Shown here: positions 2,578 through 51,529 of the stretch, one piece after another
Position numbering within the stretch: the stretch's first letter is position 1
Layout of the letters: each line of letters starts with the position of its first letter
IMG/VR virus record: IMGVR_UViG_3300005805_000068
Coordinates: 1 to 64,000 of that record
DNA: 64,000 nt
Reading direction: 5' to 3' (one strand)
DNA from: a virus
Taxonomy: Duplodnaviria; Caudoviricetes
Program-made: the position numbers and the translations under genes
The notes under the pieces: model-generated
The model's input: only the letters and a program-made list of their open reading frames with translations
What the model was told of the DNA's origin: nothing
Database searches by the model: none

Positions 2578-2597
2578 ATATACATAGTGATACCTAC

Positions 2598-2623
2598 AAA
2601 GCGGGCATCAAGCCCGCTTTTTT
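2598..2623 (+). terminator. Rho-independent terminator
   Basis: AAAGCGGGC-ATCAA-GCCCGC-TTTTTT hairpin plus U-tract. Confidence 0.85.
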
Positions 2624-2630
2624 GTTACGG

Positions 2631-2637
2631 ATAAATA
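2631..2637 (+). promoter_or_regulatory. T4-type late promoter (ATAAATA)
   Basis: Matches the TATAAATA core; lies 7 nt upstream of the ATG of a structural-looking gene. Confidence 0.65.
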
Positions 2638-2644
2638 CATTACT

Positions 2645-3775
2645 ATGAATAAAAACAACCTCGATCAAGCCCTAGCCGCACTAGGTGATGCTTTAAAAAG
2701 TCAAGATACAGATCTACTTTCTAGCGATCCTTTAGCGATAGTTAAAAAAATTCCTCAAAGATCCTTATCTGGTGATCATATTGACGGTGGTAAAATTATT
2801 AGATTTAATAGTCAAGGAATTAGCGATCAAGCAACTAAGACCAAATTAACTATCACAGACGACGCTGTTAGTATTCCTGAATTAAAAGTTGGAGTTGTAA
2901 AAGATAATCTTAAAGTTGAAGGTACTGCTGAACTATCAGATGTTACCGCTAAAACTATTAAAGTAGACACTATCGAAGCAGCAAATATCATCGGCGAGAT
3001 CAAATATGAGAAAGATATTTCTGTAGTATTCAATGGTAGTGATATTCATGGTAAAGGAATTTTATGGACAGGACATGGCAATGCCAAACAATTTGTTTAC
3101 AATAGCAATCCTGATAGAATTTTCTCTAGTGAATCTATTGACATACAGAAAGGTAAATTCCTTTCAATTAATAACATCAAAGTTTTAGATGAAGTAGAAT
3201 TAGGACCTACTGTTACAAAAAGTAATCTAAGAGAAGTAGGTAAATTACGAGGATTAATTGTTAATGGTTCGTTTAATGTTAACGATTATCTTTTCTATAA
3301 TGCATCATCAGATCGTCTAGGACTTGGTACTGAAGAACCAAATGCTGCTCTTGAAGTCGTTGAAAATCTAGTCTCAGTATTATTAGGCAGCAAAGATGCA
3401 AACAGAGGTATGGTTGGCACACATGCTACCCATCCGTTTGATATTATCACTGATAACACTCCTAGAATTTCTGTAGCAGCTAACGGTGATATATTATTAG
3501 GTAATAAAAATTCTTTACCGGTGTTCGTAAATGTTCACGGAACGTTAGGGGTTAATGTATCTACTCCAGATGCAAGAGCTCAACTACATGTAAGTGGTGC
3601 TATTAAATTTAATGATAAACTACATCTAAGTGGTGACGAACCTCCAAGAAACGGTGTATACAATCTAGGTGACATTGTTTGGAATTCAAATCCTCAACAA
3701 AGACAATATGTTGGTTGGGTTTGTACCAAAGCAGGTAGTCCAGGTCTCTGGAACGCATTCGGCGAAATCAGATAA
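2645..3775 (+). CDS. Virion structural / fibre-like protein
   Basis: Beta-rich, with LGLGTEEPNAALEV and GVNVSTPDARAQLHV fibre-type repeats and a C-terminal GDIVWN..P....GWVC...G.PG.W motif; late promoter. Confidence 0.55.
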   Translation: MNKNNLDQALAALGDALKSQDTDLLSSDPLAIVKKIPQRSLSGDHIDGGKIIRFNSQGISDQATKTKLTITDDAVSIPELKVGVVKDNLKVEGTAELSDVTAKTIKVDTIEAANIIGEIKYEKDISVVFNGSDIHGKGILWTGHGNAKQFVYNSNPDRIFSSESIDIQKGKFLSINNIKVLDEVELGPTVTKSNLREVGKLRGLIVNGSFNVNDYLFYNASSDRLGLGTEEPNAALEVVENLVSVLLGSKDANRGMVGTHATHPFDIITDNTPRISVAANGDILLGNKNSLPVFVNVHGTLGVNVSTPDARAQLHVSGAIKFNDKLHLSGDEPPRNGVYNLGDIVWNSNPQQRQYVGWVCTKAGSPGLWNAFGEIR

Positions 3776-3776
3776 C

Positions 3777-4355
3777 GTGTCATTAGCATTGGTTATAGGC
3801 AATGGCGAAAGCCGTAGGCATATTGACCTAAAAATTTTCAAACAAGATCATACGTTAATTGGCTGTAATGCTATCCACAGAGATATCGAAGTCGATCATT
3901 TGATCTGTTGCGATAAAAGAATGGTTGACGAAGCATTAAAAAACAATGTACAGTCTACTATCTATATTCGTAAAGATCGATTATCTCTATTCCCTCAATT
4001 GAAACTTGTTCCTCAATTACCGTATCAAGGTAAAGAAAAGAAAGATCAACCAGAACATTGGAATAGCGGTCCTTATGCTGTATTGCTTTCAGCGAATTTA
4101 GGATTTAATGAAGTTAAATTATTGGGATTTGATCTCTATTCTTCAAATAATAAAGTAAACAACATCTACAAAGATACTAATAATTATTCTAAATCAGAAT
4201 CTAAATCTATAGATTATTCTTTTTGGGTATATCAAATATCAAAAGTTTTCGAATACTATCCTAATATAACATTTACAATCTTAAATAATCAAGATTGGCA
4301 AATGCCTAATCAATGGACTTTACCAAATGTAAAATTTCAACCATTTAATGGTTGA
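3777..4355 (+). CDS. Glycosyltransferase-like protein (CstII/GT42 sialyltransferase- or MptE/DUF115-like fold)
   Basis: Motifs ALVIGNGESR, LIGCNA, WNSG..A, VKLLGFD; GTG start at 3777 directly after the upstream stop is preferred over 3669. Confidence 0.55.
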   Translation: MSLALVIGNGESRRHIDLKIFKQDHTLIGCNAIHRDIEVDHLICCDKRMVDEALKNNVQSTIYIRKDRLSLFPQLKLVPQLPYQGKEKKDQPEHWNSGPYAVLLSANLGFNEVKLLGFDLYSSNNKVNNIYKDTNNYSKSESKSIDYSFWVYQISKVFEYYPNITFTILNNQDWQMPNQWTLPNVKFQPFNG

Positions 4356-10587: not shown

Positions 10588-13500
10588 ATGGCACGTAAAA
10601 TTATAGATATCGGTACAGTAGGTAATGACGGTACCGGTGACAGTATTCGCGACTCGTTCCGTAAGGTCAACGACAATTTCAGAGAGTTATATAGTTCATT
10701 AGGGTTAGGAGAAAGATTAACTTTTGTTGGTCTATCAGACATATCACCAAATACCTATGTGGGACAAAATGATCCAGGAACTGGATCTACTCCTTTAGTT
10801 ACAGTCAACAATACAGAATCAGGATTAACATTCAAAAGACTAGTTCCTGGTGTAGGTATTGGCATTGATTTCACAGCCAACGGTGGCAGTGAAATAGTAA
10901 TTAATTCTGAATTCTCAGAAATTTCAGCAGATACAAGTCCACAACTAGGTGGCAATCTATCAGCCAAATCAGGTACCAATCAGTATCGTATTAGAGATTT
11001 AGTCACTCCGATCACCGACGATGAAGCTGCTAATAAAGATTACGTTGATACCAAATTATCAAGAGCTGGCGTTGAAGCTATTGATCCTGCCACAGGATTT
11101 GTCACATCAGCATTAGGACGCATGAGCGGTCCTTTATTACTTTCTCGAGATCCAGAACCAGAAGACGATGAATTATATGATGGCTTAGTTGCTGCTACTA
11201 AAAGATATGTTGATAATTCTGCTTTCGGATCAGTGGCTAACTTATATGTTGCTACTTCAGGTCAAGACGAAAGAACAGGGGTTAGCAAAGATTTCCAAGG
11301 TCGTGCATTAGCTTATGCTTATCGTACAATTGAAGCAGCACTTAAACGTGCTGAAGAATTACTTTTAGAATCACGTGTTGAATTAGGACCTTACAAAAAA
11401 CGTTTAACATATAACAGCGGAGTTTCTCCTTGTACATTAGATAAGATCGATACATCACCTACATCGGGAATAAATTTTGATGGTGATGTTGAAATGAGTG
11501 TTGATACTGCTACATTGAATAGTATCGGTACTAACTATTTTCCAGGAGATGTATTAACTGTCTCCGGCGGCACTATTGCATCAGGTGGTGAAGCATGTCG
11601 TATTGAAGTTTTAACAACTCTCACAACTCCGGGTGCTATTTCTACGTTTAGAATAGTTTCTTCTGGTGTTTACACAGGTCCAAGTTTACCAGGGCCTGTT
11701 GGAGTATTAACAAGTATTACAACTTCTGCAGCACCTCCGATCATCGGTGCTATTGGTACTGGTGCAACATTTAATCTTACTTTTAAAGTAAACAGCGTTA
11801 ATATTATCGATCAAGGTTCTGGTTATAGTTTAGTATCTGTGCGTATTGAAGGTGGCGGCGGCAGTGGTGCATTCGGTACGGCTGAAGTTATTGGTGGAAA
11901 AGTAGTCGGTATTACAATCACCGACCAAGGCAATGGGTTTACAAGTATTCCTACTCTAACAGTTGATCTTCCACGATTCTTTATATTCACAAATAATCAA
12001 AGAACAGATTTTACAGGCGATGTACTAAGTGGTACTCCAGAATCATTCCGTGGTAGAGATATACGTGAAGGATTATATTTACGTGGTGAAACATCAGGTG
12101 CGTTGGCACAAATTTTAGCACACAGTGGTGAACTTTCAACAGGATCTAGTCCTTATCCAATAGGCACAGCCGGTTGTGAAATATTTGATGTTGATATACA
12201 GTTTGGTGCGTTTATCGACGGTGAAGAAATTTCTTATGGTGATGTTACAAAACTTACACAAATTTCTGTATTAATTGAGAGTGGCACTTACGAAGAAAAC
12301 TTTCCTTTAAAAGTTCCACAAAACGTTGCTATCATTGGTGATGAGTTTAGACGTGTAATTATTAGACCGCGTACAGGAACTAGTTCAAGTCCGTGGGCAT
12401 TTAAAAAATTCCGTAGAGATTTAACTGTCGACGGAATAACTGTCGCTGAAAATCTATATGCCTATCACTATTTAGAGAATACAGAGAGTCCAGTTTATCC
12501 TCCTATTAAAAACAAAGGAAACTACGATGCCGCGGCAGCATTAATAGAATTAAATCGTTCATTCATGCAAGAAGAAGTTATTGCCTGGATGGACTACCAG
12601 ATTCTTAACAATATAGCTCCATTCACTACTTCTTTTCCTTATGATAAAACATTATGTAAACGTGATGTAGGATTATTGGTTGATTCTTTCATATTCGATT
12701 TGAAATATGGAGGATATGATAGAACTATCTCAGCAGCTTTAAAATATTATCAAAGTCCTAGTGCTCTAGTAGCTATCACTACACAATTATCAGAATATGA
12801 AGCTGTATTAGGTTATTTAGAATCTCTGATGCAAAAGATCATCGATAACACAGAAATCGTTCCAGTGTATCAAGATCTTTATGCTCAAATTATAGACAGA
12901 TCATTTACATCAGAAACTGAACCTATAACATGTACTATCAGCTTTGGCAATCCTGCTGATATTATTACTATCGATTCTGTAACCTTGGCTCCTACAGCAC
13001 ACGGATTACTAGCGGATGATCCTGTAGAATTTGCCTCAACTGGATCTTTACCGGATGGTATTACCGCTGGTACTAGATATTATGTAATCAGTTCAGGACT
13101 GACATCTACATCATTTAGAGTTAGCCCATCTGAATCTGGCAGTGCTGTGTTTACGACTTCAGGTGGTTCCGGAACACATACCGTAACCACTGGTGCTAGT
13201 AGCGTTATCACAGCGTTATTAAGAGCATTCTTTGAGGTAATCGATGGATCGGGATCTGCTAACTTACCTAAAGACAATGATAAAATGGATGTGTTCTTGT
13301 GTAATGACGCAAACATCATCCGTGCAGTAACCTGTCAAGGTCATGGTGGATTTATGATGGTTCTAGACCCAACTGGTCAGATACTTGCTAAATCACCATA
13401 TGCTCAAGAGTGTGCTAGCTTTTCTAAATCAATTGATGCTCAAACATTCGCAGGTGGTATGTTTGTAGATGGTTTCTCAGGAAATTTACAATTTACTCAC

Positions 13501-16500
13501 ACAGCCAGCGCATCAACCACAAGGATTAGTGTTGCTAGTCTAGAGAGACTACCTAATCTACCAGCTTCATTTATTGTTGATGACACTGTTCATAGAATTA
13601 ACTATGTTCGAGATTTTACATATAACAAAGCAGGATCTACAGCTACTTTAGTCTTAGATGAAACAACTCCATTTGTTAGAACTCCTGGATCGCAGATATG
13701 TACAATTAGCGTAGCATCTCCGGCTATTATTACCAAAGCGGATCATAGATTACAAGACGGTGCTATCGTTAAATTTTCTACCACTGGAACATTGCCTACG
13801 GGATTACTGCCTAATAAAGAATATTATGTTCTAGGTGCAGGATTAACCAATAATACATTTAGAGTTTCTGGTACATTTGGCTCATCAATTCCTGTAACAA
13901 CCACAGGTGCTGGTTCAGGAACTCACTCATATCAACGTATCTATGAAATATTAATGCCTGGTAATCGTTCTATGTTGGCCAACGACTTTACGCAGGTCAA
14001 CGATATGGGATATGGTGCTATTGCACAAAACGGTGGGTTGATTGAACTTGTTTCAATGTTTACCTACTACTGTTATGTTTCTTACTATTCTACCAATGGT
14101 GGACAGATTCGTTCTGTTGCTGGTTCATCAGCACACGGTGTTTACGCTTTAGTTGCGGAAGGATCAGATCCATTAGAAATTCCAACTCCTACAGAATCAT
14201 TTGATGATCTAGGACAGAAGGTAGTTTGTTATGCACCAAGTCCATCGTACTTTAATACATCCGGTGGATTATTTGTTTATGTTTGGAAATATAATTATCA
14301 ACCATTATCCAGTTCAGAACTTGAAGTTGACCATGGTAATCTAATCTATAGATATCCAATTACATCTGTAACAACTACAGATTTACCACCAGGTGTAACC
14401 AGATTAAATTTAACCAGTGATCCGACCGGTAATTTCACTGGATTATTTGATCAGATCCTCGATGGCACAAAAATGACCTTGAGATCAAATGCTAAGATAG
14501 TTTTAACAGGTGATCTAGTAGATGTTGCTGTTAGACCATCAACTGGTTTGAGATTAAATGAATCAAGTACAGATGTTTATCGTGTACTACAATTTGAAGC
14601 ATTGGAAGATTCGAATACTGGGGATTTACCTACAGGTTATGGTCCTTATGAGATTTCTGTAGACACAGGTACTAATACTTTAAAGGTATTAGCAACTATC
14701 GTTACAGTTGGTTATGAATACGATGATGTTACTCCGGCAGCTAACTTATGTAGAACATCTGTAAATCATAAATTAAAATTAGGTGATACATTTGTACCTA
14801 CATCAACGGCAAATGGATTAACCAGTGGAACCACATACTATGTAATTGACATTCCAAACTATGATGAATTTTATCTTTCAACAGTGATAAATGGAACTGT
14901 TGCGAGTCTGGTCAGCGGTACTGGATTGGCTATTAAAGGTGTAAAACCTCATAATCTTTTAGAAAACTTTACTATTGGATTTGAAAGTTCAGGAACATTA
15001 CCTAGTCCATTAGTCGAAGGAACGATCTACTATGTTGTTCCGGATAATCTAACATCAACAGAATTTCAAGTTTCTACTATTAAAAACGGTACCGCTGTAG
15101 ATTTCACTACCTCAGGTACTGGAACACATACCTATGTGATGCTAGGGTTAACCAGAACTACCATTAGAGAAAACTACGATTTCTTAGATCTTACTCTTTA
15201 TCAACCAGGTGAAGCAATCTATCTAAGTTCATCAATAGCCACAGTATCTATCGCTAGTCCTGGAGTTGTAACTACGTTAGCTGCACATGAATTAACCGCA
15301 GATGATTCTGTAATATTCTCTACTACAGGAGCATTGCCAACAGGGCTCACAGCCGGTACTAGATATTATGTGTTATCTACCGGATTAACATCAACATCAT
15401 TTAGACTTAGCACTGCTCCAGGTGGAGCTGTGATTAATACTTCTGGTACACAATCTGGTACACATTCATTCTCAAGAGGCGGTAAATCCAGCACCATTAG
15501 CGTTGCTAGTCCAGCCGTAGTATCTACAGTAAGCAATCATGGGTTAGTGGCCAACGATAAAATACAATTTACAGCAGTAGGTGGTATATTACCAACAGGA
15601 GTTTCTGAGTCACTTACTTATTATGTTTTATCTACAGGATTAACAGGAACTAGTTTTCAATTTAGTACTTCAATAAGTGGTTCTGCTGTTAACACCACAG
15701 TAGCTGGAACTGGCACACCTCATATTGTTAAAGCAGTTAGTACCTGTTCAATTAGTGTAGGTAGTCCTGCAACCATAACAAAAACATCACATGGATTATC
15801 AATTGGTGATGTAATTAAATTTGAAACAACGGGTTCATTGCCTATTGGTATCAGTGCTCAGGCTCAATATTTTGTTCGAACAACAAACTTTACTATCAAC
15901 AGTTTTGAAATATCCTTAGAACCAGAAGCATTACCAACTTCGGTTGCTGTTGATACTTCAGGCTCACCATCAGGACAACATTATTTCAGCAGAGTCACTG
16001 GTCGAGAAGGTGATAATAGTATCGCTGTGGTCGCTCTAGGTTCAGGAGATGTTCCAAGAGCAGACGGAACTAAATTTGTATGGAAAGGTGAAGAATACAC
16101 TATAGTTGATTATCAACCTGAAACCGTAACTAATAAACCTTATGGTAAACTGATACTTGATAGACCATTTAAAGATAGTATTATTGATTATGGTTCATCT
16201 TATACTATTCGATCAGCTGTACCTAAGAGATCACCCGGGGCAGCAGGTTCATTAACTATACGTATTTCTTTAACACGTGTAACAGGACATGATTTACTAG
16301 AAATAGGTACTGGTTCATATGCTGACACTAACTATCCTAATGAAATTTATGGTCCAAGTGTTAATGCACTAAACGACGACAACGAAGTTGACGAACGTGA
16401 CGTAGGTCGTGTATTCTACGTGACCACTGACCAATTTGGTAACTTTAATGTTGGGCCATACTTTAGAGTTGACCAAGGTACTGGTCGAGTAACTTTTGCA

Positions 16501-40803: not shown

Positions 40804-41640
40804 ATGGACTATTACTCAACTCTTGGATTAAAACGCGGTGCTAGTGCTGATGATATTAAAAAAGCCTATCGAAGCCTAGCAATGAAACACCATCCAGACC
40901 GCGGTGGTGATGAAAAGAAATTTAAAGAAATTTCACAAGCCTACGAATTTTTAACCGACCCTCAAAAGAAATCTATTATCGATATGGGTGGTGATCCAAA
41001 TTCCCAAGGAGGATTCCATCATGGTCGAGGGGATCCTTTTGAATTCCATTTTGGAACTGAAGATTTAAATGATCTATTTGGTAACTTTGGATTTGGATTC
41101 GGTGGTAGACCCCAACGAAGAAATAGAAGTCTAAGTATTAATGTTGAAATTAATCTAGAAGAAGTACTAACCGGAAAAGAAATTAACGCAGAAGTTGGTG
41201 TTCCGGGTGGTAGTAAAAAAATGATTAATATTGAAATACCACCAGGTATACAACATGGACAACAGATCAAATATCAAGGAATGGGAGATCACACCATGAC
41301 TGATATTCGTCCTGGTGATTTAATAGTCAACATTTTTGTAAGACCGCATAGTACATTCCGCAGAGAAGGAAATAATCTAATATTTGAAAAATCTATCACT
41401 ATCTGGGATGCAATATTAGGATCAAAAATTGCTATCGATACATTAGATAAAAAAACTTTACATATTACAGTACCTCCAGGCACACAACCAGATACTGTAA
41501 TGAGTTGTAACGGTGAAGGATTACCTGATATGAGAACTAAACATCGAGGTAATTTGTTGATTAGAATTAAAGTCAACGTACCAAGAAATCTAACTTACGA
41601 TCAATATCAAAAAATACAGGAACTAAAGAATGTCATTTAA
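40804..41640 (+). CDS. dnaJ: DnaJ/CbpA-type co-chaperone without zinc finger
   Basis: J domain with HPD, G/F region, C-terminal domain (GDLIV, G.GLP, GNLLI). Confidence 0.9.
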   Translation: MDYYSTLGLKRGASADDIKKAYRSLAMKHHPDRGGDEKKFKEISQAYEFLTDPQKKSIIDMGGDPNSQGGFHHGRGDPFEFHFGTEDLNDLFGNFGFGFGGRPQRRNRSLSINVEINLEEVLTGKEINAEVGVPGGSKKMINIEIPPGIQHGQQIKYQGMGDHTMTDIRPGDLIVNIFVRPHSTFRREGNNLIFEKSITIWDAILGSKIAIDTLDKKTLHITVPPGTQPDTVMSCNGEGLPDMRTKHRGNLLIRIKVNVPRNLTYDQYQKIQELKNVI

Positions 41641-42127
41641 TTTAGGTCCTCACGAAAGTCTTATACAAGTCAGTACTAACTGGGAGTTTGGTATTGATGG
41701 AGACGCTAAACAATTAGAAAAAGATCTAATTGAATTTATGTTGGCCAATAAAGGAATTGGTTTGGCTGCTAATCAGATCGGATTAACTAAACGTGTTTTT
41801 GTAATGGGAAGTAACAATATCGAAGGATTTCCTGTACCTTTCGCTGTGTTTAATCCTGTAATAACAGAAGCCAGCACAGATTTAGTATTAGATGAGGAAG
41901 GATGTTTAAGTTATCCCGATTTATTTTTAAAAGTAAAAAGGCCAAACTGGATTATCGCACAGTATCAAGACAGCGAAGGTAATCTAAAAGAAATTAAAGC
42001 CGAAGGATATTTGGCCAAATGCTTTCAACACGAATATGATCATCTAAATGGTGTATGTTTTGTTGACAGAGTATCACAGATGAAGTTACAATTAGCTATG
42101 AAGAAAATAAGGAAAAAGAATAAATGA
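41630..42127 (+). CDS. def: Peptide deformylase
   Basis: GIGLAANQ, EGCLS, QHEYDHLNG. Confidence 0.95.
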   Translation: MSFNLGPHESLIQVSTNWEFGIDGDAKQLEKDLIEFMLANKGIGLAANQIGLTKRVFVMGSNNIEGFPVPFAVFNPVITEASTDLVLDEEGCLSYPDLFLKVKRPNWIIAQYQDSEGNLKEIKAEGYLAKCFQHEYDHLNGVCFVDRVSQMKLQLAMKKIRKKNK

Positions 42128-44472
42128 TCGAACCGAGCCAAAATCTACAAGCTATCTTTGAAAACAGTATTAAGATCGCTCAAGAAAATCAGCATGAATA
42201 TATCACTATTGAACATTTAGTTTATGCGATCTTATGTGATCAGGAATCTCATGCTTTCATGGAAGGGTTTGGTGCTGATGTTAATTTTATCAAAACCAAT
42301 CTTGAACACTACATTAAAAATAATATGGCTGATATTAAAACCGATAATAAAAATATCAAACCTAAAAAAACAAATAGTGTAGAACGTGTACTTAATCGAT
42401 GCTTTACTCAAGTTCTGTTTAGCGGACGTCAACGTATGGAAGTTGCTGATGTGATTGTTAGCGTTCTTTCGGAAAAGAATAGTTTTGGATTTTACTTCTT
42501 ACAGAAGGGCGGAGTTACCAAAGAGAAGTTTGTTAAGTTCTTCCAAGAAAATCTTATCATAGAAGAAGTTGAAGAGATGGAAGAAGAAACCAGAGTTACT
42601 GCTCATCACGGAAATGGTGAAAAAATACTTAATCAATTTTGTACTAATCTTTCATTAAAGGCGAAACAAAGAACCATCGACCCAGTTATTGGTCGTGATG
42701 AAGAAATTGAAAAAATTAATCTTGTGTTAGCAAGACGTAATAAATCAAATGTGTTAATGGTAGGTGAACCAGGTGTAGGTAAGACTGCTATTGCTGAAGG
42801 TATCGCTCGTAAAATCTTTGAAAAGAAAGTACCTAAATTTATTCAAGACCACACAGTATACACATTAGATATCGGAGCATTACTTGCTGGTAGTAAGTAT
42901 CGAGGAGACTTTGAAGAACGTATCAAATCAGTATTAAACACACTCGAGAAAAAAGGAAAAATTATTTTATTCATTGACGAAGCACACATGATGAGTGGTG
43001 CTGGAACCGCTAGCAACAGTCCAAATGATCTGGCCAATCTGTTAAAACCAGTGCTTACTAAGGGTGTAATAAAGCTCATCGCAAGTACCACTTGGGAAGA
43101 GTATCGCAAGCACTTTGAAAAAGACCGTGCTTTAATGCGCAGATTCCAACGTGTTAATATTGATGAACCTACTCCAGACATGGCAGTTAAAATCCTCAAA
43201 GGTCTTAAAAAGTATTACGAAAAACATCACAACGTTAAGATTAGCGATGCTGCTATCGAACAAGCAGTTAAATTGTCAGTTAAGTATATGAGTGATAAAA
43301 AATTACCTGATAAAGCCATCGATATCATTGACTGTGCTTCAGCTCGTTACAAACTTAAAGACGATGAAACTACAGAAGGTGTAGAACAGATTGTTGATAT
43401 TGAACAGGTCACTTATGAGCTTAGTAAGATGATTAATATGCCATTAGAAACAGTGGCTCAAAAAGAAAGTAAAAATCTTGCTGATTTAGAATCAGGTATG
43501 AAAGGTGCTGTATACGGGCAGGATGATGCTGTAGATACATTGCTCGATAAGATCTTTGTATCACAGGCAGGAATGAAGTCACCAAATAAACCTATTGGAT
43601 CATTCCTTTTCCTTGGGCCAACTGGTTGCGGTAAGACCGAAACTGCTAAACAACTGTCAGATAAGATGGGGATGCCTCTTGTGCGATTTGATATGGGCGA
43701 ATATCAAGAGAAACATTCAGTAGCACGTTTGATTGGTGCGCCTCCGGGATATGTAGGTTATGAAGATAATGCCGGTCAACTTATTACTAAATTACAAGAA
43801 ACTCCTAACAGTATTCTGTTATTGGATGAAATTGAAAAAGCACATCCAGATGTTACTAATATCCTGTTAGCATTCATGGATAATGGATTTGTTACAGGTT
43901 CTAACGGCAAACAGGCAGATGGACGTAACTGTATTCTTATCATGACATCAAACTTAGGTGCTGCTGATAATGAAAACAATACTATTGGTTTTGGTGCGTT
44001 GGACAAAGAAGGCGAAGATGATAAAGCAGTTAAGAAATTCTTTGCTCCAGAGTTTAGAAATCGGTTAGATGGTATTATTAAATTTACTAAACTATCACAA
44101 GATACTGTTGCACAGATTGTTAAAAAATTCATCGGTGATCTCAATGATCAACTTAAAGACAAAGGTATTGAAATTGTCGCAGGTGCTAATGCTGTTAAAT
44201 GGTTGTCAGATAAAGGGTATGACAGCAAGATGGGTGCTAGACCGTTGGCAAGATTGATTGATAATAAAATTAAGAGTCCATTAAGTCGACGTGTATTATT
44301 TGGAGATTTAGTAGATGGTGGTCGTGTAAATATCACCGTTGAAAACGATGAGTTATCTTTTACAATAACAGAATTACCTAAGCCCTTAACAAAAGCAGAA
44401 CGCAAGGCTCTCAAAGCTGCAAAATTTACAGAAAATATAGTTGAGACCGCAGATGAAAACACTGACAACTAA
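42124..44472 (+). CDS. clpA: ClpA-type AAA+ unfoldase
   Basis: N domain; two NBDs (GEPGVGKT, GPTGCGKT); DMGEYQEKH.VARLIGAPPGY; GARPL. Confidence 0.92.
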   Translation: MIEPSQNLQAIFENSIKIAQENQHEYITIEHLVYAILCDQESHAFMEGFGADVNFIKTNLEHYIKNNMADIKTDNKNIKPKKTNSVERVLNRCFTQVLFSGRQRMEVADVIVSVLSEKNSFGFYFLQKGGVTKEKFVKFFQENLIIEEVEEMEEETRVTAHHGNGEKILNQFCTNLSLKAKQRTIDPVIGRDEEIEKINLVLARRNKSNVLMVGEPGVGKTAIAEGIARKIFEKKVPKFIQDHTVYTLDIGALLAGSKYRGDFEERIKSVLNTLEKKGKIILFIDEAHMMSGAGTASNSPNDLANLLKPVLTKGVIKLIASTTWEEYRKHFEKDRALMRRFQRVNIDEPTPDMAVKILKGLKKYYEKHHNVKISDAAIEQAVKLSVKYMSDKKLPDKAIDIIDCASARYKLKDDETTEGVEQIVDIEQVTYELSKMINMPLETVAQKESKNLADLESGMKGAVYGQDDAVDTLLDKIFVSQAGMKSPNKPIGSFLFLGPTGCGKTETAKQLSDKMGMPLVRFDMGEYQEKHSVARLIGAPPGYVGYEDNAGQLITKLQETPNSILLLDEIEKAHPDVTNILLAFMDNGFVTGSNGKQADGRNCILIMTSNLGAADNENNTIGFGALDKEGEDDKAVKKFFAPEFRNRLDGIIKFTKLSQDTVAQIVKKFIGDLNDQLKDKGIEIVAGANAVKWLSDKGYDSKMGARPLARLIDNKIKSPLSRRVLFGDLVDGGRVNITVENDELSFTITELPKPLTKAERKALKAAKFTENIVETADENTDN

Positions 44473-45106
44473 TAAGAAATTTTACAACAAATGGTTGTAT
44501 AAGGTTTCTCTCAATGCTCCCTATTCCAATGCTTTTAGAATATATGATTTTGACGAGATTAAGAATCACTGTTATTCTAATAATGAAGACCATCTTAGAT
44601 GGATAGGGGCTAATGTTAGGGAGCATAAGGATCAAATAATTCCGTTGGTAGAATATTTAGAAACATTAGATCCTAGTGCATGGACTAAACGTATAGAGAC
44701 TCGACAGATAGATTTTTATACTAATGACTCTATTATATACGAAGACCTTTTTGAAAAATTCCAAGATCAAGTCATACATAGATCTGCTCCTTCCGGACAG
44801 ACATTAGATTCAAAATCTATATTAACTACTAAATTACCTCACGGAAAATATCGATATAGGGTATATCTACAACCTCATAAACTTAAAAATGATCGAGATG
44901 GTAAGAAAAAGTATTTAGATTGGCTTATCGGGCAATCTCCTAGAATTACCTGTACAGATGCTGTACAACGTTGGTTCTTAAAAACTGATTGGAATTGGGA
45001 CCGCAGATACGTATTAGTAGAAGATGAAGGCACTTTATTGATGCTTAAACTAAGAAATCCAGAGGTTATGGGCAGTGTCTATAACTATGTCTTAAGCGAT
45101 AAATAA
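44453..45106 (+). CDS. Hypothetical protein
   Basis: ORF overlapping the clpA end; ATG at 44453 preferred. Confidence 0.6.
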   Translation: MKTLTTNKKFYNKWLYKVSLNAPYSNAFRIYDFDEIKNHCYSNNEDHLRWIGANVREHKDQIIPLVEYLETLDPSAWTKRIETRQIDFYTNDSIIYEDLFEKFQDQVIHRSAPSGQTLDSKSILTTKLPHGKYRYRVYLQPHKLKNDRDGKKKYLDWLIGQSPRITCTDAVQRWFLKTDWNWDRRYVLVEDEGTLLMLKLRNPEVMGSVYNYVLSDK

Positions 45107-45109
45107 GAG

Positions 45110-45463
45110 ATGTCCACTGAAAGTACAATTCTAATATCTAATATCACAACAGAAGTTTTATCACCTTCTGTTTTTTCCTATTCTGATAAACAAAAGGGAG
45201 CAGGCTATCACAAATACAATGATGGCGTTCATACCGCTGTTTATCAACTCAGCGAATTTGTTGGAACTATTAAAATACAGGCTACATTAGAATTATATCC
45301 AGGCGATAATGACTGGTTTGATGTAGATGGTACTGAACATAGTTTTGATAGTTCTATATCAAATGGTGCGTATCCTTATACATTTACTGGTAAATTTACC
45401 TGGATTCGTGCTGCATACAACCTACAAAACGGTACTATTACCCAAATCCGATATAATTACTAA
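45110..45463 (+). CDS. Small virion-type beta protein
   Basis: ATAAATA 4 nt upstream; G.IKIQATL...P....WF motif. Confidence 0.55.
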   Translation: MSTESTILISNITTEVLSPSVFSYSDKQKGAGYHKYNDGVHTAVYQLSEFVGTIKIQATLELYPGDNDWFDVDGTEHSFDSSISNGAYPYTFTGKFTWIRAAYNLQNGTITQIRYNY

Positions 45464-45487
45464 GTTTCAAAAGGCGATAAATATAGT

Positions 45488-46570
45488 ATGACCTTACGGA
45501 ACCATACTATGAGAGACCTTATATCAAAATTAGACGCATTAATCAATGAAACTACACTTAGTACATTCGATCCTAAAGATGACTATGATGCTAAATCTAA
45601 AAATTTACAAGATCTAGAAAGAAACAAAGACATAGATCCCGAAGCTGTTAAGCAACGTAAACTAGATCTAGATAAAGAAGCACGTGCTAAAGGTGTTAAA
45701 GAAGAGTTTGAAGTTGGGGACTCCTTCGGAATTAGCTTTTCAGAAGATCACGAAATTTCTACAGAAATTGTAGGATTTTTAGAAGATGGCATCGTTATTG
45801 ATCTTGATGATGCTGCTTTAGAGATGTTAGATCAAGAAGGAATATTCTTTATCGAAGGCGAAGTTCTAGATGAAAGTAAAGGACCATGTTGGGTAGGCTA
45901 CAAACAGGTAGGAATGAAAAATAAAGGCGGTAAGCAGGTTCCTAATTGTGTAAAAGAAAGTGGACTACAATACTACACCGGCAAAAAGAAATACGGTAAA
46001 GATGGAATGACTGCATTAGCACAAGCCGGTCGTGATGGTGCTTCAGAACAAGAATTAGGCAAAATCAAAGACAAATACAAGAAAGAAGATCACGGTCCGG
46101 AAGATCCAGACGCAAGTTACAATGTTGGTGAATATGATCGTGAAGGTGATATGGCCAAAGATCAATTACGTACTGTAAATGATGCTGCCAAAGAACTATA
46201 CAGTATTATCCAAGCAGATGAAAATCTTCCAGAATGGGTGCAGGCTAAGATTACTAAGGCCATGGACTATTTAGATACAGCACGTGATTACATGAAGGCC
46301 AACAAATATGCCGAAGATATTGATATGGACGAAGCCAAATATCACGGTAAAGAAGTTCCGCTAGGTAAAAAATTACCAGGCGATGTAAAGAAATCAAAAG
46401 TATATGTGCGTAAGCCTAATGGTAAGATCGTTAAAGTAAACTTTGGCGATAAGAAAATGCGTATCAAGAAATCTAATCCAGCACGTAGACGTTCATTCCG
46501 TGCTAGACATAATTGCAAAAATCCAGGACCGCGTTGGAAAGCACGCTATTGGTCATGTAGGAGTTGGTAA
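45488..46570 (+). CDS. Modular internal-head/prohead-core-like protein
   Basis: Short modules separated by hydrophobic-x-Glu sites (LINE, VKEE, LDE, VKE, MDE); alternative start 45509. Confidence 0.6.
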   Translation: MTLRNHTMRDLISKLDALINETTLSTFDPKDDYDAKSKNLQDLERNKDIDPEAVKQRKLDLDKEARAKGVKEEFEVGDSFGISFSEDHEISTEIVGFLEDGIVIDLDDAALEMLDQEGIFFIEGEVLDESKGPCWVGYKQVGMKNKGGKQVPNCVKESGLQYYTGKKKYGKDGMTALAQAGRDGASEQELGKIKDKYKKEDHGPEDPDASYNVGEYDREGDMAKDQLRTVNDAAKELYSIIQADENLPEWVQAKITKAMDYLDTARDYMKANKYAEDIDMDEAKYHGKEVPLGKKLPGDVKKSKVYVRKPNGKIVKVNFGDKKMRIKKSNPARRRSFRARHNCKNPGPRWKARYWSCRSW

Positions 46571-46908
46571 TGAAGTTATTCGAACTGTTTAGTCCTATCG
46601 GAGCTCCTAAGGAAGCCGATCAAGATATTGATTGGATAGGTGACTTAAAATTTTATATCGACAATGATGAAAAAATGCTCAGCAATTATTTCTTTCCTGC
46701 TGTTAAGCGTCATCAAGAATACAAAGGCAATCCAAATGCCTATAAAATTTATATCAGACCTATTGAAAAATGTTTAGATAGTTATTGTCAACAATATGAA
46801 ATCCAAGATCGAGAAGTAAAATTTCCTAAGGAACAGCTTATTGAATTGGCTAAGCAAATGGCTGAAGAACAAGAAAAGCACATAGACCACGGCGACTATG
46901 AGAATTAA
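46570..46908 (+). CDS. Putative capsid-targeted protein
   Basis: N-terminus MKLFELF; TAATG coupling. Confidence 0.6.
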   Translation: MKLFELFSPIGAPKEADQDIDWIGDLKFYIDNDEKMLSNYFFPAVKRHQEYKGNPNAYKIYIRPIEKCLDSYCQQYEIQDREVKFPKEQLIELAKQMAEEQEKHIDHGDYEN

Positions 46909-47992
46909 CGAACTATTTGAAGCAGATTCGAAGCATGCCGCATTTTGTTTCGGCAGAATGAATCCTCCTACGGTTGGACATAAACAATTACTAAACACTG
47001 TTAAAAGTGTAGGTGGGGATCATTTCATTTTTGTTAGCCAATCACAAGATCCTAAAAAAAATCCTTTAGATTATTCTACCAAAATTAAGTTTATGAAACT
47101 TATGTTTCCCGAACATGCTAAAAATATTGTAGAAGATTCAAGTCTAAATACGGTTGTAAAAGTTGCTAGTTACGTGTATAATTTAGGTTATAGAAATGCA
47201 ACCTTTGTAGCAGGGAGTGATAGATTAGATACTATGAAACAGCTACTTACGCAATACAATGGAGTAGAAGGCAAAGCACACGGTTTCTATCAGTTCGATG
47301 TACTTGATTTTAAGTCAAGCGGTGATCGTGAAGACGGAGCGGAAGGAGTTGCTGGAGTTAGTGCGAGCAACGCTCGAGTTGCCGCAGCTAATAATGATTT
47401 AGAAGCATTTAAAGAATCAACAGGTGCTGGACAGTATGCAGAACCACTGTTCAAAGCAGTTCGTCAAGGTATGGGAATACAAGAAGGACTAGAAGAAGGA
47501 AAATTTAGAAGTAGAGATGTTGAAGAACGATTGATACCTAATAAAAAATTAAATGATCTAAAAAGTAAATATCTTCCCGATTGGGAAATGTTGGATCACA
47601 GAATTCTACAGGCAAAGTATGTTGCTAAGGATCATAGACATGCCGAGGAATTGGTTTCTTACATAAACAAAATCAGTGAAGAAATGGATCATTTTGCTGA
47701 AGTTACCCAAGATGTTGCAGAAGTAACTGTTAAGACTTCAACCTTTGATGTTAAAGGTTTAACTGTGTTAGATTTTAAACTAGCATTAAAAGTTGACAAA
47801 TATGCAGAGTCTAACGATATCGAACAGGTAAGAATGCAAGGTAATTTTGGTATGCACGAAGGCAAGAAAGATGCCTGCTATAACAAAGTTAAAAGTCGTG
47901 TCAAAGTATGGCCTTCAGCTTATGCCAGCGGACAGTTAGTGCAATGTCGCAAACGCGGTGCTGCCAATTGGGGAACAGGTAAGAAAAAATGA
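46898..47992 (+). CDS. HxGH nucleotidyltransferase fused to a pterin-4a-carbinolamine dehydratase-like domain
   Basis: FGRMNPPTVGH, AGSDR, SAS..R; C-terminal WEMLD...DHFAEV...TFDVKGLT.LDF; N-terminus MRINELFE. Confidence 0.75.
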   Translation: MRINELFEADSKHAAFCFGRMNPPTVGHKQLLNTVKSVGGDHFIFVSQSQDPKKNPLDYSTKIKFMKLMFPEHAKNIVEDSSLNTVVKVASYVYNLGYRNATFVAGSDRLDTMKQLLTQYNGVEGKAHGFYQFDVLDFKSSGDREDGAEGVAGVSASNARVAAANNDLEAFKESTGAGQYAEPLFKAVRQGMGIQEGLEEGKFRSRDVEERLIPNKKLNDLKSKYLPDWEMLDHRILQAKYVAKDHRHAEELVSYINKISEEMDHFAEVTQDVAEVTVKTSTFDVKGLTVLDFKLALKVDKYAESNDIEQVRMQGNFGMHEGKKDACYNKVKSRVKVWPSAYASGQLVQCRKRGAANWGTGKKK

Positions 47993-48345
47993 GAGCGCAC
48001 GAGTTTATCAATGAGGACCTGCGTAAATGGTTTAAACAAAAGTGGGTACGATTTGGTCCCGACGGTAAGATCCGCGGAGACTGTGCTAGAGGATCAGAAA
48101 AAGAAGGCAAGCCTAAGTGTTTACCACAAAGCAAAGCACATGCACTAGGCAAGAAGGGTAGGGCCTCGGCAGCGGCTCGCAAGCGTAGAGAAGATCCTAA
48201 TCCAGAACGCAAAGGCAAGGCGATTAATGTCAGTACTAAGAAAAAATCAAATGAAGATGTAGCAGAAGGATATGGACGTTACTGGTGTTCAACAGATAAG
48301 AAATGGAAAACTCGCAAAGGGCCTAAACAAAAGAGATCATCATGA
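47989..48345 (+). CDS. Basic putative internal head protein
   Basis: MRAHEFINE then LRKWFKQKWV...KPKCLP. Confidence 0.65.
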   Translation: MRAHEFINEDLRKWFKQKWVRFGPDGKIRGDCARGSEKEGKPKCLPQSKAHALGKKGRASAAARKRREDPNPERKGKAINVSTKKKSNEDVAEGYGRYWCSTDKKWKTRKGPKQKRSS

Positions 48346-48803
48346 AGATAGCCGATATTATTGAAAGTCGTGGGCATAAGATTATTGCTACTAAACTGGC
48401 AAATATGGACCGTATGAAAAATATTCAAATTCCTACTCCCGCCGAACGTAGAGCACAACTAGATAAACAAAAAGAACAAGAAAAGAAAATTAAAGAAGGA
48501 ATGCCTGGTTGGGATCGAGAATTTTCTGTAGGCACATATACATACTATACCTACGACGAAAGAGAAGAGGATAATCGTAAAACATTCCATGCTGTACAAA
48601 GTGATGACGGAAAACAATTTGATGTAGATTGGACACCATACGGAAAAATGACTCCACAAGACTTAAAAATTTGGATCAAATTAGGTATGCCTGATCGCAA
48701 ATCTATTAAGAGTATCGGTCCATTGCGTCATGAAGATCTAGTCAAATATGCACAAGCACAAGGTATTGCTAATCTAGATCCAGAATTAGCAGGCGCAAAA
48801 TAA
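48342..48803 (+). CDS. Putative internal head protein
   Basis: MKIADIIE N-terminus; internal KIKE site. Confidence 0.6.
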   Translation: MKIADIIESRGHKIIATKLANMDRMKNIQIPTPAERRAQLDKQKEQEKKIKEGMPGWDREFSVGTYTYYTYDEREEDNRKTFHAVQSDDGKQFDVDWTPYGKMTPQDLKIWIKLGMPDRKSIKSIGPLRHEDLVKYAQAQGIANLDPELAGAK

Positions 48804-49012
48804 TGGAATTAGACGAACTAAAAAAATTAGCAGGTATTACAGAGTTCAAAGGATTTCAACTTTACGGTGGTAGCAATATCAGTATTACCGGTAATGAGAA
48901 ACAAAAGTTAGAAAAGGAGCATAATATTAAACCAGGTACTCCAGAATGGTTTCAATTATGGTTCAGTTTACCATACCTAACTGGTGAACCACCGATAGGA
49001 GATAAGAAATGA
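48803..49012 (+). CDS. Small hypothetical protein
   Basis: [14 protein letters not shown]; [13 protein letters not shown]. Confidence 0.65.
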
Positions 49013-49359
49013 TCACAGTAATAGAGCAACCACAATTAGTCACCATAGCACCAGGTGCTATTGCTAAGATCAAAGAACTGATCGCAGAAGAAAATAATCC
49101 TAATTTAAAATTGCGTATGTTCGTTAGTGGTGGCGGATGTAGTGGTATGCAGTATGGATTTACTTTTGAAGAAGAAGCCAACGAAGATGATTTTGATCTA
49201 GAGTTTGAAGGCATACATCTGTTGATTGACAGTATGAGCAGTCAATATCTACAAGGTGCAGAAGTAGACTATACAGAGTCATTACAAGGTAGTCAATTTA
49301 GTATTAAAAATCCACAAGCACAAACTACATGTGGGTGTGGGAGTTCTTTTAGCGCATGA
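49009..49359 (+). CDS. erpA: ErpA-type Fe-S insertion protein
   Basis: [42 protein letters not shown]. Confidence 0.92.
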
Positions 49360-50006
49360 GAGCCAGTGATTTAGCATTACCGGAGGGAATGGAAATCTAT
49401 CTAGATATGGATGGGGTTCTTGCAGACTTCTTTCACGAATATGCTAAGTTGGCAGGTGTTCCAGCAAACAAATATGGTAAACACGATTATCGCAGTATTC
49501 CTCCAGCCAAGGCAGATCCTACATTAGATAAAATGGTAGGTACAGATTTCTTTGATAGACTTCCTAAGTTCCCTACAACTGATAAACTAATACAAATTGC
49601 TGTAGATGCAGCAGGTGGATATAATATCTGCTCAAGTCCATTACGTGGTGATCACGAAGGATCAGCAAAATATAAACGTAGTTGGATTGCTAGAGAATTA
49701 GAAACACAACCTAAACTAATACACATCACTCCAAACAAAGCCAAATATGCTAAAAATGCTGATGGTATGCCTAATGTATTAATTGACGATCGAGGCAGTA
49801 ATATTTCAGCATGGGAAGCAGCAGGCGGCATTGGTATCAAATATCAAGCAGACGAGAACAGCCTCAAAGTAGTATTAGACGGACTTAAACGTGCCCGTCG
49901 TATTGCTAAGGGTGAAGAAGAACATGAACCGCAAGAATTAGTCAGCAAGGATAGAGGCGGCAGTTCTGCTATTGCTACTCCTGGAGATAAGAATGAGAGC
50001 ATTTGA
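49356..50006 (+). CDS. 5'(3')-deoxyribonucleotidase (HAD, NT5C family)
   Basis: [26 protein letters not shown]. Confidence 0.85.
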
Positions 50007-50316
50007 ATTTATCACAGAAGCCAAGCGTAAAAAGCGCAAACCACGCTGGGCTGCTTATGGTCCAGGTCCATTTGGCGGATATGGATATGCTGTAGGCTAT
50101 AGTGGAGACGGCGGTGTTGCCAGTGGAGACGGTGGCGGAGTTGGAGAAAACTTCGCAGATAGTAAAAAGCCAGGACGTAAAGGACTAGCCAAACGTAGTG
50201 GTGTAAACTGTAAAGCCAGTATTAGCAGCCTACGTAAAACTGCTAAGAACAGCACAGGTGAAAAACGTAGAATGGCACATTGGTGTGCTAATATGAAGTC
50301 AGGTAGAAATAAATAG
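49993..50316 (+). CDS. Putative internal head protein
   Basis: MRAFEFITE start at 49993; Gly-rich linker; basic C-terminal module. Confidence 0.6.
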   Translation: MRAFEFITEAKRKKRKPRWAAYGPGPFGGYGYAVGYSGDGGVASGDGGGVGENFADSKKPGRKGLAKRSGVNCKASISSLRKTAKNSTGEKRRMAHWCANMKSGRNK

Positions 50317-50322
50317 TATATC

Positions 50323-50583
50323 ATGAAAATTAAAGACATTTTAGAATCAGCAACAGCGGGAGCTACAAGCTCTGGCAATATTGCTACTGTTGTAAGCCCA
50401 CATCTTGCTATAGGTAAAGATCTCGGCAATAAATCATATACAGGCAGTCCTGGAAAATCAGGTACAAAAGCACCTAAAGTTCCTAAAGTAAAACAACCAA
50501 AGAATCTAGATGGAACAGCTAAAAACGCTTTGGACATGAAAGGCACCAATATATTTGGTGGTGGCTCTGCCATTAAAAGATAA
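50323..50583 (+). CDS. Putative internal head protein
   Basis: MKIKDILE; ATAAATA at 50309. Confidence 0.6.
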   Translation: MKIKDILESATAGATSSGNIATVVSPHLAIGKDLGNKSYTGSPGKSGTKAPKVPKVKQPKNLDGTAKNALDMKGTNIFGGGSAIKR

Positions 50584-50620
50584 ATACAATATGACCCTTT
50601 AAAACCCAAGGAATAAGGAA

Positions 50621-51466
50621 ATGGACTTTAAATCACTAGTACAAAAAATTACAAGCATGGACGATCCTATCAAGACCGTTGCTGCTCCAGAACTTCCAAA
50701 AGCTGTTCAACTCAATGAAGACGCAGAATTGCGTGTCTTAGCTGGAACTTCAACTATTCTTGCAGAAGCAAAGAAAAAAGAAGAATCTGAAAAGAAAGAA
50801 GAAAGTGTTAAAGAAGAAATGGAAGTTGGTGATTCAAAGAAAACTGCAGGTGGTGGCACAGTTACTAAAACAGCAACTGGTATTATCCACAAAGGTAAAA
50901 AATACGGCGGTGAAGAAGAAAAGTCAGATGACGAAGAAGACGCACCTAAATCTAAGAAAGAATCTATCGATGCAGAAGCATTTAAAGGCAAGTTTGCTAA
51001 AATGGTAGAAGCAAAGAAAGAAAAGAAAGAAGATAAAAAGAAACCAATGAAAGAAGCTGCTAAACCAGATTTCTTAGACATTGACAAAGATGGCGACAAG
51101 AAAGAGCCTATGAAAAAAGCTGCTAAAGAAAAGGGCGGCGATAAGAAAGATGGCAAGAAGGGCATGAGTGCTAAACAAGCCAAATATTTTGGAAAGAAAG
51201 ACGAGTCTGTAAAGTCCGATAAGAAAGTAGTAGCAGAATCAGTAGAACCAAAATTAACTTTCAAAGATATGGTTAAACTTGTACAAGAAAGTGGTGGCCA
51301 ACAACGTATCGATGCTAAAGACGAAGCATTATTTTCCTGGGCTCAACGTGTAGCTGCTGCTAAATTTACAGAATCAGCAAAACAAGAAGTATATGCCGGA
51401 TTAGTTTATGAACGTATGGGCGGCGTATTTGAAATGTACGACGTTCTTTCAGAAAATCAAAAGTAA
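50621..51466 (+). CDS. Lys/Glu-rich prohead scaffold/core-like protein
   Basis: Many L/V/M-x-E sites; KPDFLDIDKDGDKKE motif; late promoter at 50580. Confidence 0.55.
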   Translation: MDFKSLVQKITSMDDPIKTVAAPELPKAVQLNEDAELRVLAGTSTILAEAKKKEESEKKEESVKEEMEVGDSKKTAGGGTVTKTATGIIHKGKKYGGEEEKSDDEEDAPKSKKESIDAEAFKGKFAKMVEAKKEKKEDKKKPMKEAAKPDFLDIDKDGDKKEPMKKAAKEKGGDKKDGKKGMSAKQAKYFGKKDESVKSDKKVVAESVEPKLTFKDMVKLVQESGGQQRIDAKDEALFSWAQRVAAAKFTESAKQEVYAGLVYERMGGVFEMYDVLSENQK

Positions 51467-51481
51467 TATTACCAAAATAAC

Positions 51482-51515
51482 AAAAAGCCAGCAATTTTAA
51501 TTGACTGGCTTTTTT
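51482..51515 (+). terminator. Terminator overlapping the -35 box
   Basis: AAAAAGCCAG...CTGGCTTTTTT; TTGACT forms part of the 3' arm. Confidence 0.85.
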
Positions 51516-51529
51516 GTTGGCTATATAAT
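51501..51529 (+). promoter_or_regulatory. Sigma70 promoter for the replication block
   Basis: TTGACT(51501-06)-17 nt-TATAAT(51524-29). Confidence 0.85.

Follow-up and report, generated by a model that had tools for sequence, protein, structure and literature searches.

Positions 45,509 to 51,466 of the IMG/VR virus record IMGVR_UViG_3300005805_000068 are filled by 11 genes, most of which start with a similar short peptide; we describe these genes and ask whether the peptide serves as a T4-type capsid targeting sequence (CTS). The DNA analyzed (the window) comprises the first 64,000 bases of an 80,626-base viral contig, the completeness of which is estimated at 23% by CheckV. The window contains T4-type replication genes and long tail-fiber genes, and its polB product is 50% identical to that of Sinorhizobium phage Phosso, 46% to that of Agrobacterium phage Atu_ph07, and approximately 43% to those of 350–380-kb coliphages. 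Seven metagenome runs of lake water, drawn from four or more studies, each contained at least half of the sampled 31-letter words of the window, and a sequencing-run search listed no RNA runs among those sharing its words. The T4-type genes, the polB identities, and the lake-water runs together indicate that the window is a fragment of an uncultured freshwater T4-like jumbo phage.

The 11 genes all lie on the + strand and are joined by ATGA or short overlaps, with the first intergenic space at 50316 (Table 1). The block adjoins the polB unit and is located in the replication region, outside the head module. The protein bodies behind the leaders are mutually unrelated, belonging to different families or to none in Pfam and PHROG. 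Family profile searches, including Pfam, found no match for open reading frame (ORF) 2 or ORF11, and the small modules gave only weak Pfam matches at E values up to 1, to families without known function. The dehydratase-like domain of ORF3 was the sole match in PDB sequence searches. The entire block gave only one blastn match to cultured phages, 147 bases long, to cyanophages and within the DUF5872-like module, and a tblastn search with ORF10 of 50,697 records of cultured phages gave none. ORF4 has 1879 database homologs and ORF10 more than 1300 public metagenome homologs, all unnamed, and no name or Pfam domain was found among the public metagenome homologs of either. ORF4 occurs only in unnamed viral clusters of the ESM Atlas, and its structural model is of low confidence (pLDDT 0.52).

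Table 1. Predicted features of the block and its borders (window coordinates; aa, amino acids; pI, isoelectric point)
Feature	Position	Strand	Description
J-domain protein	40804-41640		upstream neighbor
Peptide-deformylase-like protein	41630 (start)		upstream neighbor
ClpA/ClpB-like AAA+ protein	42124-44472		upstream neighbor, 782 aa
Late-promoter-like GATAAATA	45476-45483	+	ahead of ORF1, the first tagged gene
ORF1	45509-46570	+	353 aa; 14-residue leader (45509-45550) ending I-N-E, then acidic region
ORF1 modules	45875-45958	+	28-aa basic two-Cys module, followed by helical acidic module
ORF1 C-terminal module	46334-46567	+	78 aa, very basic, two-Cys, net charge +23
ORF2	46570-46908	+	112 aa, acidic; 15-residue leader (46570-46614) ending P-K-E
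ORF3	46898-47992	+	364 aa; 8-residue leader (46898-46921)
ORF3 HxGH nucleotidyltransferase	46922-47497	+	Pfam; tblastn to cyanophage T4-GC190 cytidylyltransferases
ORF3 pterin-4a-carbinolamine-dehydratase-like domain	47498-47860	+	after junction L-E-E|G; Pfam and PDB
ORF3 basic two-Cys DUF5872-like module	47861-47989	+	after M-H-E|G
ORF4	47989-48345	+	118 aa, pI 10.4; 9-residue leader (47989-48015) ending I-N-E; 84-aa basic two-Cys module
ORF4 mini-module	48268-48342	+	25 aa, basic, after V-A-E; missing from 84-aa relatives
ORF5	48342-48803	+	153 aa; 8-residue leader (48342-48365) ending I-I-E
ORF6	48803-49012	+	69 aa; 14-residue leader (48803-48844) ending I-T-E, like the T4 Alt leader
ORF7	49009-49359	+	untagged A-type Fe-S carrier (IscA/ErpA-like); Pfam Fe-S_biosyn, E 1e-19
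ORF8	49356-50006	+	216 aa; 10-residue leader (49356-49385) ending L-P-E
ORF8 body	within 49356-50006	+	HAD-type 5'(3')-deoxyribonucleotidase-like; PHROG 2643, E 3.5e-22; weak Pfam NT5C match
ORF9	49993-50316	+	107 aa, pI 10.5; 9-residue leader (49993-50019) ending I-T-E; basic/Gly-rich part
ORF9 second module	after junction at 50148/50149	+	55 aa, basic two-Cys; junction V-G-E|N
Late-promoter-like AATAAATA	50308-50315	+	ahead of ORF10
ORF10	50323-50583	+	86 aa, pI 10.1; 8-residue leader (50323-50346) ending I-L-E
ORF10 body	50347-50391, then remainder	+	15 capsid-like residues; remainder Lys/Pro/Gly-rich
Late-promoter-like GATAAATA	50579-50586	+	ahead of ORF11
ORF11	50621-51466	+	281 aa, Lys/Glu-rich; longer N-terminal region with L-N-E and L-A-E sites
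Terminator-like hairpin and T-run	51486-51529	+	overlaps sigma-70-like promoter TTGACT-17-TATAAT, 11/12 matches

Nine of the 11 genes start with M-[RK]-x-x-[DE]-hydrophobic-hydrophobic-(x)-E or with a 14–15-residue variant, giving leaders (tags) of 8–15 residues. An earlier note, made from the sequence alone, had quoted nine N-termini, and all of them were found where it had placed them. Eight of the nine leaders end with L/I-x-E (I-N-E, L-F-E, I-N-E, I-I-E, I-T-E, L-P-E, I-T-E, and I-L-E). A motif scan, as called for by the note, was made across the contig with a pattern for the first seven residues, M[RK]..[DE][LIFVM][LIFVMA]. The six-frame translation of the entire contig contained ten matches, seven of which are starts of block genes (46570–50323), and none of the remaining approximately 90 contig ORFs begins in this manner. 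For ORF1, an in-frame ATG is also present at 45488, 4 nt past the promoter-like motif; nevertheless, the start at 45509 is the one conserved in G001, a 364-kb relative that is the only complete one among ten larger related contigs.

A search of IMG/VR with ORF3 found 80 related loci, almost all of which contain several genes with the same kind of leader on different proteins, amounting to 138 distinct tagged ORFs. In 87% of these, the third residue is A, I, or L, and approximately 70% have E at residue 8 or 9; both biases concern positions that the search pattern leaves free. Because the third positions of the tag codons vary among the relatives while the second positions are fixed, the constraint is on the peptide and not on the DNA.

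The comparison of relatives also revealed that a module located directly behind an N-terminal tag in one phage can be found inside a longer protein in another, with an identical boundary residue. The dehydratase-like domain follows L-E-E|G-K-F-R-S in ORF3 and elsewhere has a gene to itself, whose tag ends I-L-E|G-K-F-R-S. Likewise, the second module of ORF9 follows V-G-E|N-F-A-D in the window and a tag ending L-L-E|N-F-A-D in other loci, and the ORF5 module is internal in other phages, after F-K-E. At 113 distinct internal junctions aligned to the end of a tag, the residue before the boundary (P1) is Glu in 56%, as compared with 7.6% for positions drawn at random from these proteins; hydrophobic-x-Glu is present at 37% of the junctions versus a background of 2.2%, and the P3 residue is mostly V, L, I, F, or M. 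A second set, independent of these junctions, was provided by the 120 best database homologs of ORF4, in which the module stands behind 33 different N-terminal tags or in 30 different internal contexts, all of which end with hydrophobic-x-Glu. These comparisons bear out the statement of the earlier note that the internal modules are bounded by hydrophobic-x-Glu, and they show that an internal linker in one phage is equivalent to an N-terminal tag in another. If the block proteins were cut at the proposed sites, several of the fragments would be strongly basic, with two Cys each, pI values of 9.7–11.5, and net charges of up to +23.

The junction of ORF10 suggests a link between the leaders and head maturation. 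Peptidase_S77 was found in four of ten larger related contigs (G001, G002, G003, and G009). In G001, it belongs to a T4-like head module with portal, protease, scaffold, and Gp23 capsid genes, and the relatives also encode a gp67-like core protein and a scaffold protein. When the G001 capsid protein is aligned to T4 gp23, the T4 cut E65|A66 falls on L-S-E|S-A-T-A-G-A-T-S; the G003 and G009 capsid proteins behave likewise, and the site in the relatives is L-[SA]-E|S-A-T-A-G. ORF10 consists of a tag ending in Glu followed by SATAGATSS, and 14 of 20 residues across the junction are identical to the capsid site of the relatives; its 15 residues at 50347–50391 copy the mature N-terminus of their major capsid protein. 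Because the same residues follow the tag, the boundary behind at least the ORF10 tag is a copy of the capsid maturation site of the lineage.

A link to virions is provided by cyanophages. The nucleotidyltransferase domain of ORF3 is 35–47% identical (tblastn) to the cyanomyovirus “cytidylyltransferase” T4-GC190, which was detected in purified S-SM1 virions by mass spectrometry (Sullivan et al. 2010, PMC3037559). The leader at the start of S-SM1 T4-GC190 and of five orthologs is T4-like and 10 residues long, reading M-[KR]-x-F-x-x-F-[LIF]-x-E|A. Another cyanophage protein, T4-GC119 (S-RIM8 gp114 and S-P4 gp060), is a chain of small basic modules of the ORF1, ORF3, and ORF4 types with hydrophobic-x-Glu before each; its virion status rests only on the structural annotation in the S-P4 record. 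The cyanomyoviruses thus share with the block the enzyme domain and the small basic modules. In contrast, the cyanophage small modules are in one long protein beside the small terminase subunit with no obvious N-terminal tag, whereas those of the block are distributed over several tagged genes. The nucleotidyltransferase also occurs in other settings. In Pelagibacter phage HTVC008M, the ortholog (2450–4240 of the stretch examined) is another multi-module form of the enzyme, a fusion protein of 596 aa that contains a long, charged linker region and, at its C-terminus, a DUF5824 module. The homolog in Pseudomonas phage PA5oct (2459–3031 of the stretch examined) lies within a run of proteins that are labeled structural on the basis of mass spectrometry; it lacks this label itself and has no Glu-terminated leader.

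The leaders resemble those of T4 itself. According to the T4 record, the IPII/IPIII leader is M-K-T-Y-Q-E-F-I-A-E|A, that of gp24 is M-A-K-I-N-E-L-L-R-E|S, that of Alt is M-E-L-I-T-E-L-F-D-E|D, and gp23 has L-T-E at residues 63–65. The T4 CTS is present on IPI–III, Alt, and gp24 and is removed by the prohead protease gp21 (Mullaney and Black 1996; PMC9026906, PMC3012670), which takes off these leaders and, from gp23, residues 1–65 (PMC9026906, PMC9958956). Like the T4 CTS, the block leader is a short N-terminal sequence on unrelated proteins, composed of M, a basic residue, an acidic residue, and two hydrophobic residues, then x-E; the hydrophobic-x-Glu end is a further likeness, and the T4-type protease present in relatives and the late-promoter-like motifs may be others. 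Unlike the T4 CTS, which has 10 residues, the block leaders mostly have 8–9, and their cargo has no sequence homology to the T4 internal proteins and includes multi-module proteins with internal cut sites and recognizable metabolic enzymes. In addition, the block genes form one operon beside polB and are known from sequence alone. As an illustration only, a loose leader pattern was applied to the entire T4 genome; it matched seven of 271 ORFs, including IPII, IPIII, and gp24, and missed Alt and the S-SM1 GC190 leader. T4 gp61.1, a hypothetical protein of 54 aa encoded by gene 61.1 in the early primase region, starts with M-K-T-F-K-E-F-I-K-E, which is nearly the IPII/IPIII CTS.

Two other systems are comparable. 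The ip loci of T-even phages are hypervariable (Repoila et al. 1994, as cited in PMC9026906). Like the block, they are arrays of different ORFs with the leader alone in common, and their content varies between related phages; unlike them, the lineage of the block also moves modules between N-terminal and internal polyprotein positions, and it is a freshwater jumbo lineage with only distant T-even kin. In phiKZ, 201phi2-1, and SPN3US, ejection and inner-body proteins are processed by a protease related to T4 gp21 (PMC5694885). As proposed for the block, many head proteins of these phages are cleaved behind the Glu of a three-residue motif, frequently at more than one site, and are delivered with the DNA. 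In contrast to the block, the phiKZ-like motif is A/S/G-x-E, most propeptides exceed 100 residues, and there is no common short leader; the block has mostly V, L, I, F, or M at P3, instead of a small residue, and leaders of 8–15 residues.

The expression signals are compatible with late transcription. The earlier note had placed late promoters at 45477, 50309, and 50580; the placement and depletion of the motif there are promoter-like, but it is G/A-ATAAATA and not the canonical TATAAATA, which occurs exactly at three sites on the contig and nowhere inside the block. ATAAATA is depleted in the window (13 observed versus 31.7 expected from shuffles), 12 of the 13 copies are on the coding strand, and most lie 11–41 nt upstream of gene starts, the genes behind it including three tail-fiber or baseplate-like genes and block genes 1, 10, and 11. 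Because of this depletion, strand bias, and position upstream of genes that include tail-fiber genes, G/A-ATAAATA behaves like a late promoter. Downstream of ORF11, the hairpin element (Table 1) is predicted to end the late block and to start the polB unit; it resembles composite promoter-terminator (PeSL) elements, which are reportedly found in T4-type phages. The segments 45476–45494 and 50579–50597 share a longer word, namely GATAAATA followed by four bases and ATGACC. The ATG of the second copy, at 50591, opens an ORF of only three codons, and the ATG in this word may therefore be part of a promoter or initiation region and not a start codon.

We favor the explanation that the 45.5–51.5 kb block is a late, translationally coupled operon whose products would be loaded into the prohead and then clipped by a T4-type mechanism that is extended to polyproteins; we assign this a probability of about 0.6. 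The earlier note had proposed a T4-type leader cut at hydrophobic-x-Glu on unrelated proteins and polyproteins. The core of that proposal is supported by five comparative lines, each independent of the others: the likeness of the tags to the leaders of T4 IPII/IPIII, gp24, and Alt; the equivalence between N-terminal tags in some phages and internal linkers in others; an ORF10 junction identical to the site at which the capsid protein matures; a Peptidase_S77 protease and a T4-like head module in syntenic relatives; and the cyanophage ortholog of the ORF3 enzyme, which was found in virions and has a T4-like leader.

By this explanation, the 8–15-residue leader on every block gene except the Fe-S carrier would be the counterpart of the T4 CTS in this lineage and would bind the scaffolding core during prohead assembly. 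The Peptidase_S77 (gp21-like) prohead protease would then cut after the Glu of hydrophobic-x-Glu, removing the leader, and the same protease would split the multi-module proteins at their internal hydrophobic-x-Glu linkers. In T4, replacement of this Glu by Asp blocks the cut. The predicted products are of two kinds, namely the enzymes and enzyme-like units (nucleotidyltransferase, dehydratase-like domain, and 5'-nucleotidase-like enzyme) and several strongly basic two-cysteine peptides of 25–85 residues. All of them would remain in the head beside the DNA, with which they would probably enter the host. Thus, the capsid of the phage is probably loaded with enzymes as well as small basic peptides. 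Core binding, cleavage, head retention, injection, and a role in the host are what we infer, and head retention and injection are the weakest of these steps.

Several points weigh against this explanation. The ORF2 leader ends with P-K-E and has no hydrophobic P3 residue, ORF7 and ORF11 do not match the tag, and the membership of ORF11 in the tagged set is doubtful. The promoter motif differs from that of T4. The published virion detection covers one orthologous domain only, in a distant cyanophage. Protease, scaffold, and capsid genes are all missing from the contig, and a PF03420 search found no Peptidase_S77 in it, a result that is uninformative as the contig is a fragment (approximately 23% complete). 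Finally, the junction counts are derived from kindred sequences and hence are not independent events, and BLAST extension through a matching Glu biases them toward P1 = E; the junction pattern is nevertheless uniform despite the kinship.

The main rival explanation is that the tagged proteins are assembly components of the prohead core, which would be targeted and cut to yield fragments for scaffolding or for neutralizing the charge of the DNA, or fragments that are expelled, and not delivered effectors. T4 gp22, gp67, and gp68 start in a similar way and are broken down into small peptides (PMC9958956); many block products are short and highly charged, with predicted disorder; ORF10 copies the N-arm of the capsid protein; and ORF11 is Lys/Glu-rich, as scaffold proteins are. 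However, the block is located away from the head module and contains recognizable enzymes, its modules are shuffled and vary between phages in the manner of T-even internal-protein loci and unlike core scaffold genes, and the orthologous enzyme is still present in mature cyanophage virions. We therefore regard an assembly or DNA-condensing role as unlikely.

It is considerably less probable that the leader addresses proteins to a non-capsid target, such as the ClpA-like unfoldase and J-domain chaperone of the phage, or that it is a degradation or localization tag. The genes for these two proteins lie directly upstream, and their synteny with the block is conserved, but such a target would leave unexplained the hydrophobic-x-Glu form of the internal linkers, the copy of the capsid maturation site in ORF10, the match to proven T4 leaders, and the virion detection of the cyanophage ortholog. 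Least probable of all is a shared start with no address function, which would be a side effect of ATGA overlaps between stop and start codons, of translational coupling, and of recombination among genes that start alike: 121 of 133 tagged starts are ATGA, which forces an initial A in codon 2 and favors Arg or Lys, and no Shine-Dalgarno-like conservation was found upstream of tagged starts, but residues 3 and 5–9 are conserved as amino acids while third codon positions vary, and the same boundary recurs internally, where there is no start codon.

The mechanism proposed here for the block is in itself the known one of T4. What appears to be new is its use in an abundant freshwater jumbo lineage, the exchange of modules between tagged genes and internal polyprotein positions, the presence of enzymes among the cargo, and a small protein, ORF10, that copies the capsid cut site and N-arm. 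A literature search of incomplete coverage found no published account of such leaders or junctions in cyanophages or jumbo T4-like phages. If the tags act as in T4, the capsid contents of abundant uncultured freshwater giant phages, and likewise of marine cyanophages, would be predictable from sequence. The predicted cargo (a nucleotidyltransferase, a nucleotidase, and a family of small basic two-cysteine peptides) would then provide candidates for host takeover in the first minute, anti-defence, or DNA condensation. This would also account for the old puzzle of a cytidylyltransferase in cyanophage virions and provide a rule for dividing “polyprotein-like” hypothetical proteins (DUF5872, DUF6321, and others) into real functional units, and the leader could serve as a packaging handle in cultured cyanophages.

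A wider proposal, which we put forward tentatively and at somewhat less than even odds, is that one combinatorial packaging system is common to the T4-like phages of lakes and oceans (the jumbo lineage, cyanomyoviruses, and pelagimyoviruses). Its elements would be a capsid address and hydrophobic-x-Glu linkers, with a virion that delivers a variable set of dozens of protease-released products and the ORF10 family as a dedicated component. If so, any enzyme or small basic peptide could be added, split, or fused by recombination, and the set of injected effectors could be read straight from metagenomic sequence.

The surroundings of the block are also conserved. In gene order, G001 matches the window: the genes for a J-domain protein, a deformylase-like protein, and a ClpA-like protein are followed by two small genes, the tagged block, polB, and clamp. 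It shares with the block the ORF1 leader and the residues that follow it, and has ORF7 and an ORF11 ortholog at the same places. In the window, the J-domain, deformylase-like, and ClpA/ClpB-like genes (Table 1) and the two small genes occupy 40804–45463, so that a phage chaperone/unfoldase gene set adjoins the putative head cargo, an arrangement kept in G001. Tagged proteins are spread across the G001 genome and include an NTP_transf_2 protein and a 372-aa DUF6267 protein (12576–13694 of the G001 stretch) with a K-W-D-G motif, which is ligase- or nucleotidyltransferase-like. The same motifs as in the DUF6267 protein were seen by eye in SSM1_189 (T4-GC71), an untagged S-SM1 protein encoded beside GC190.

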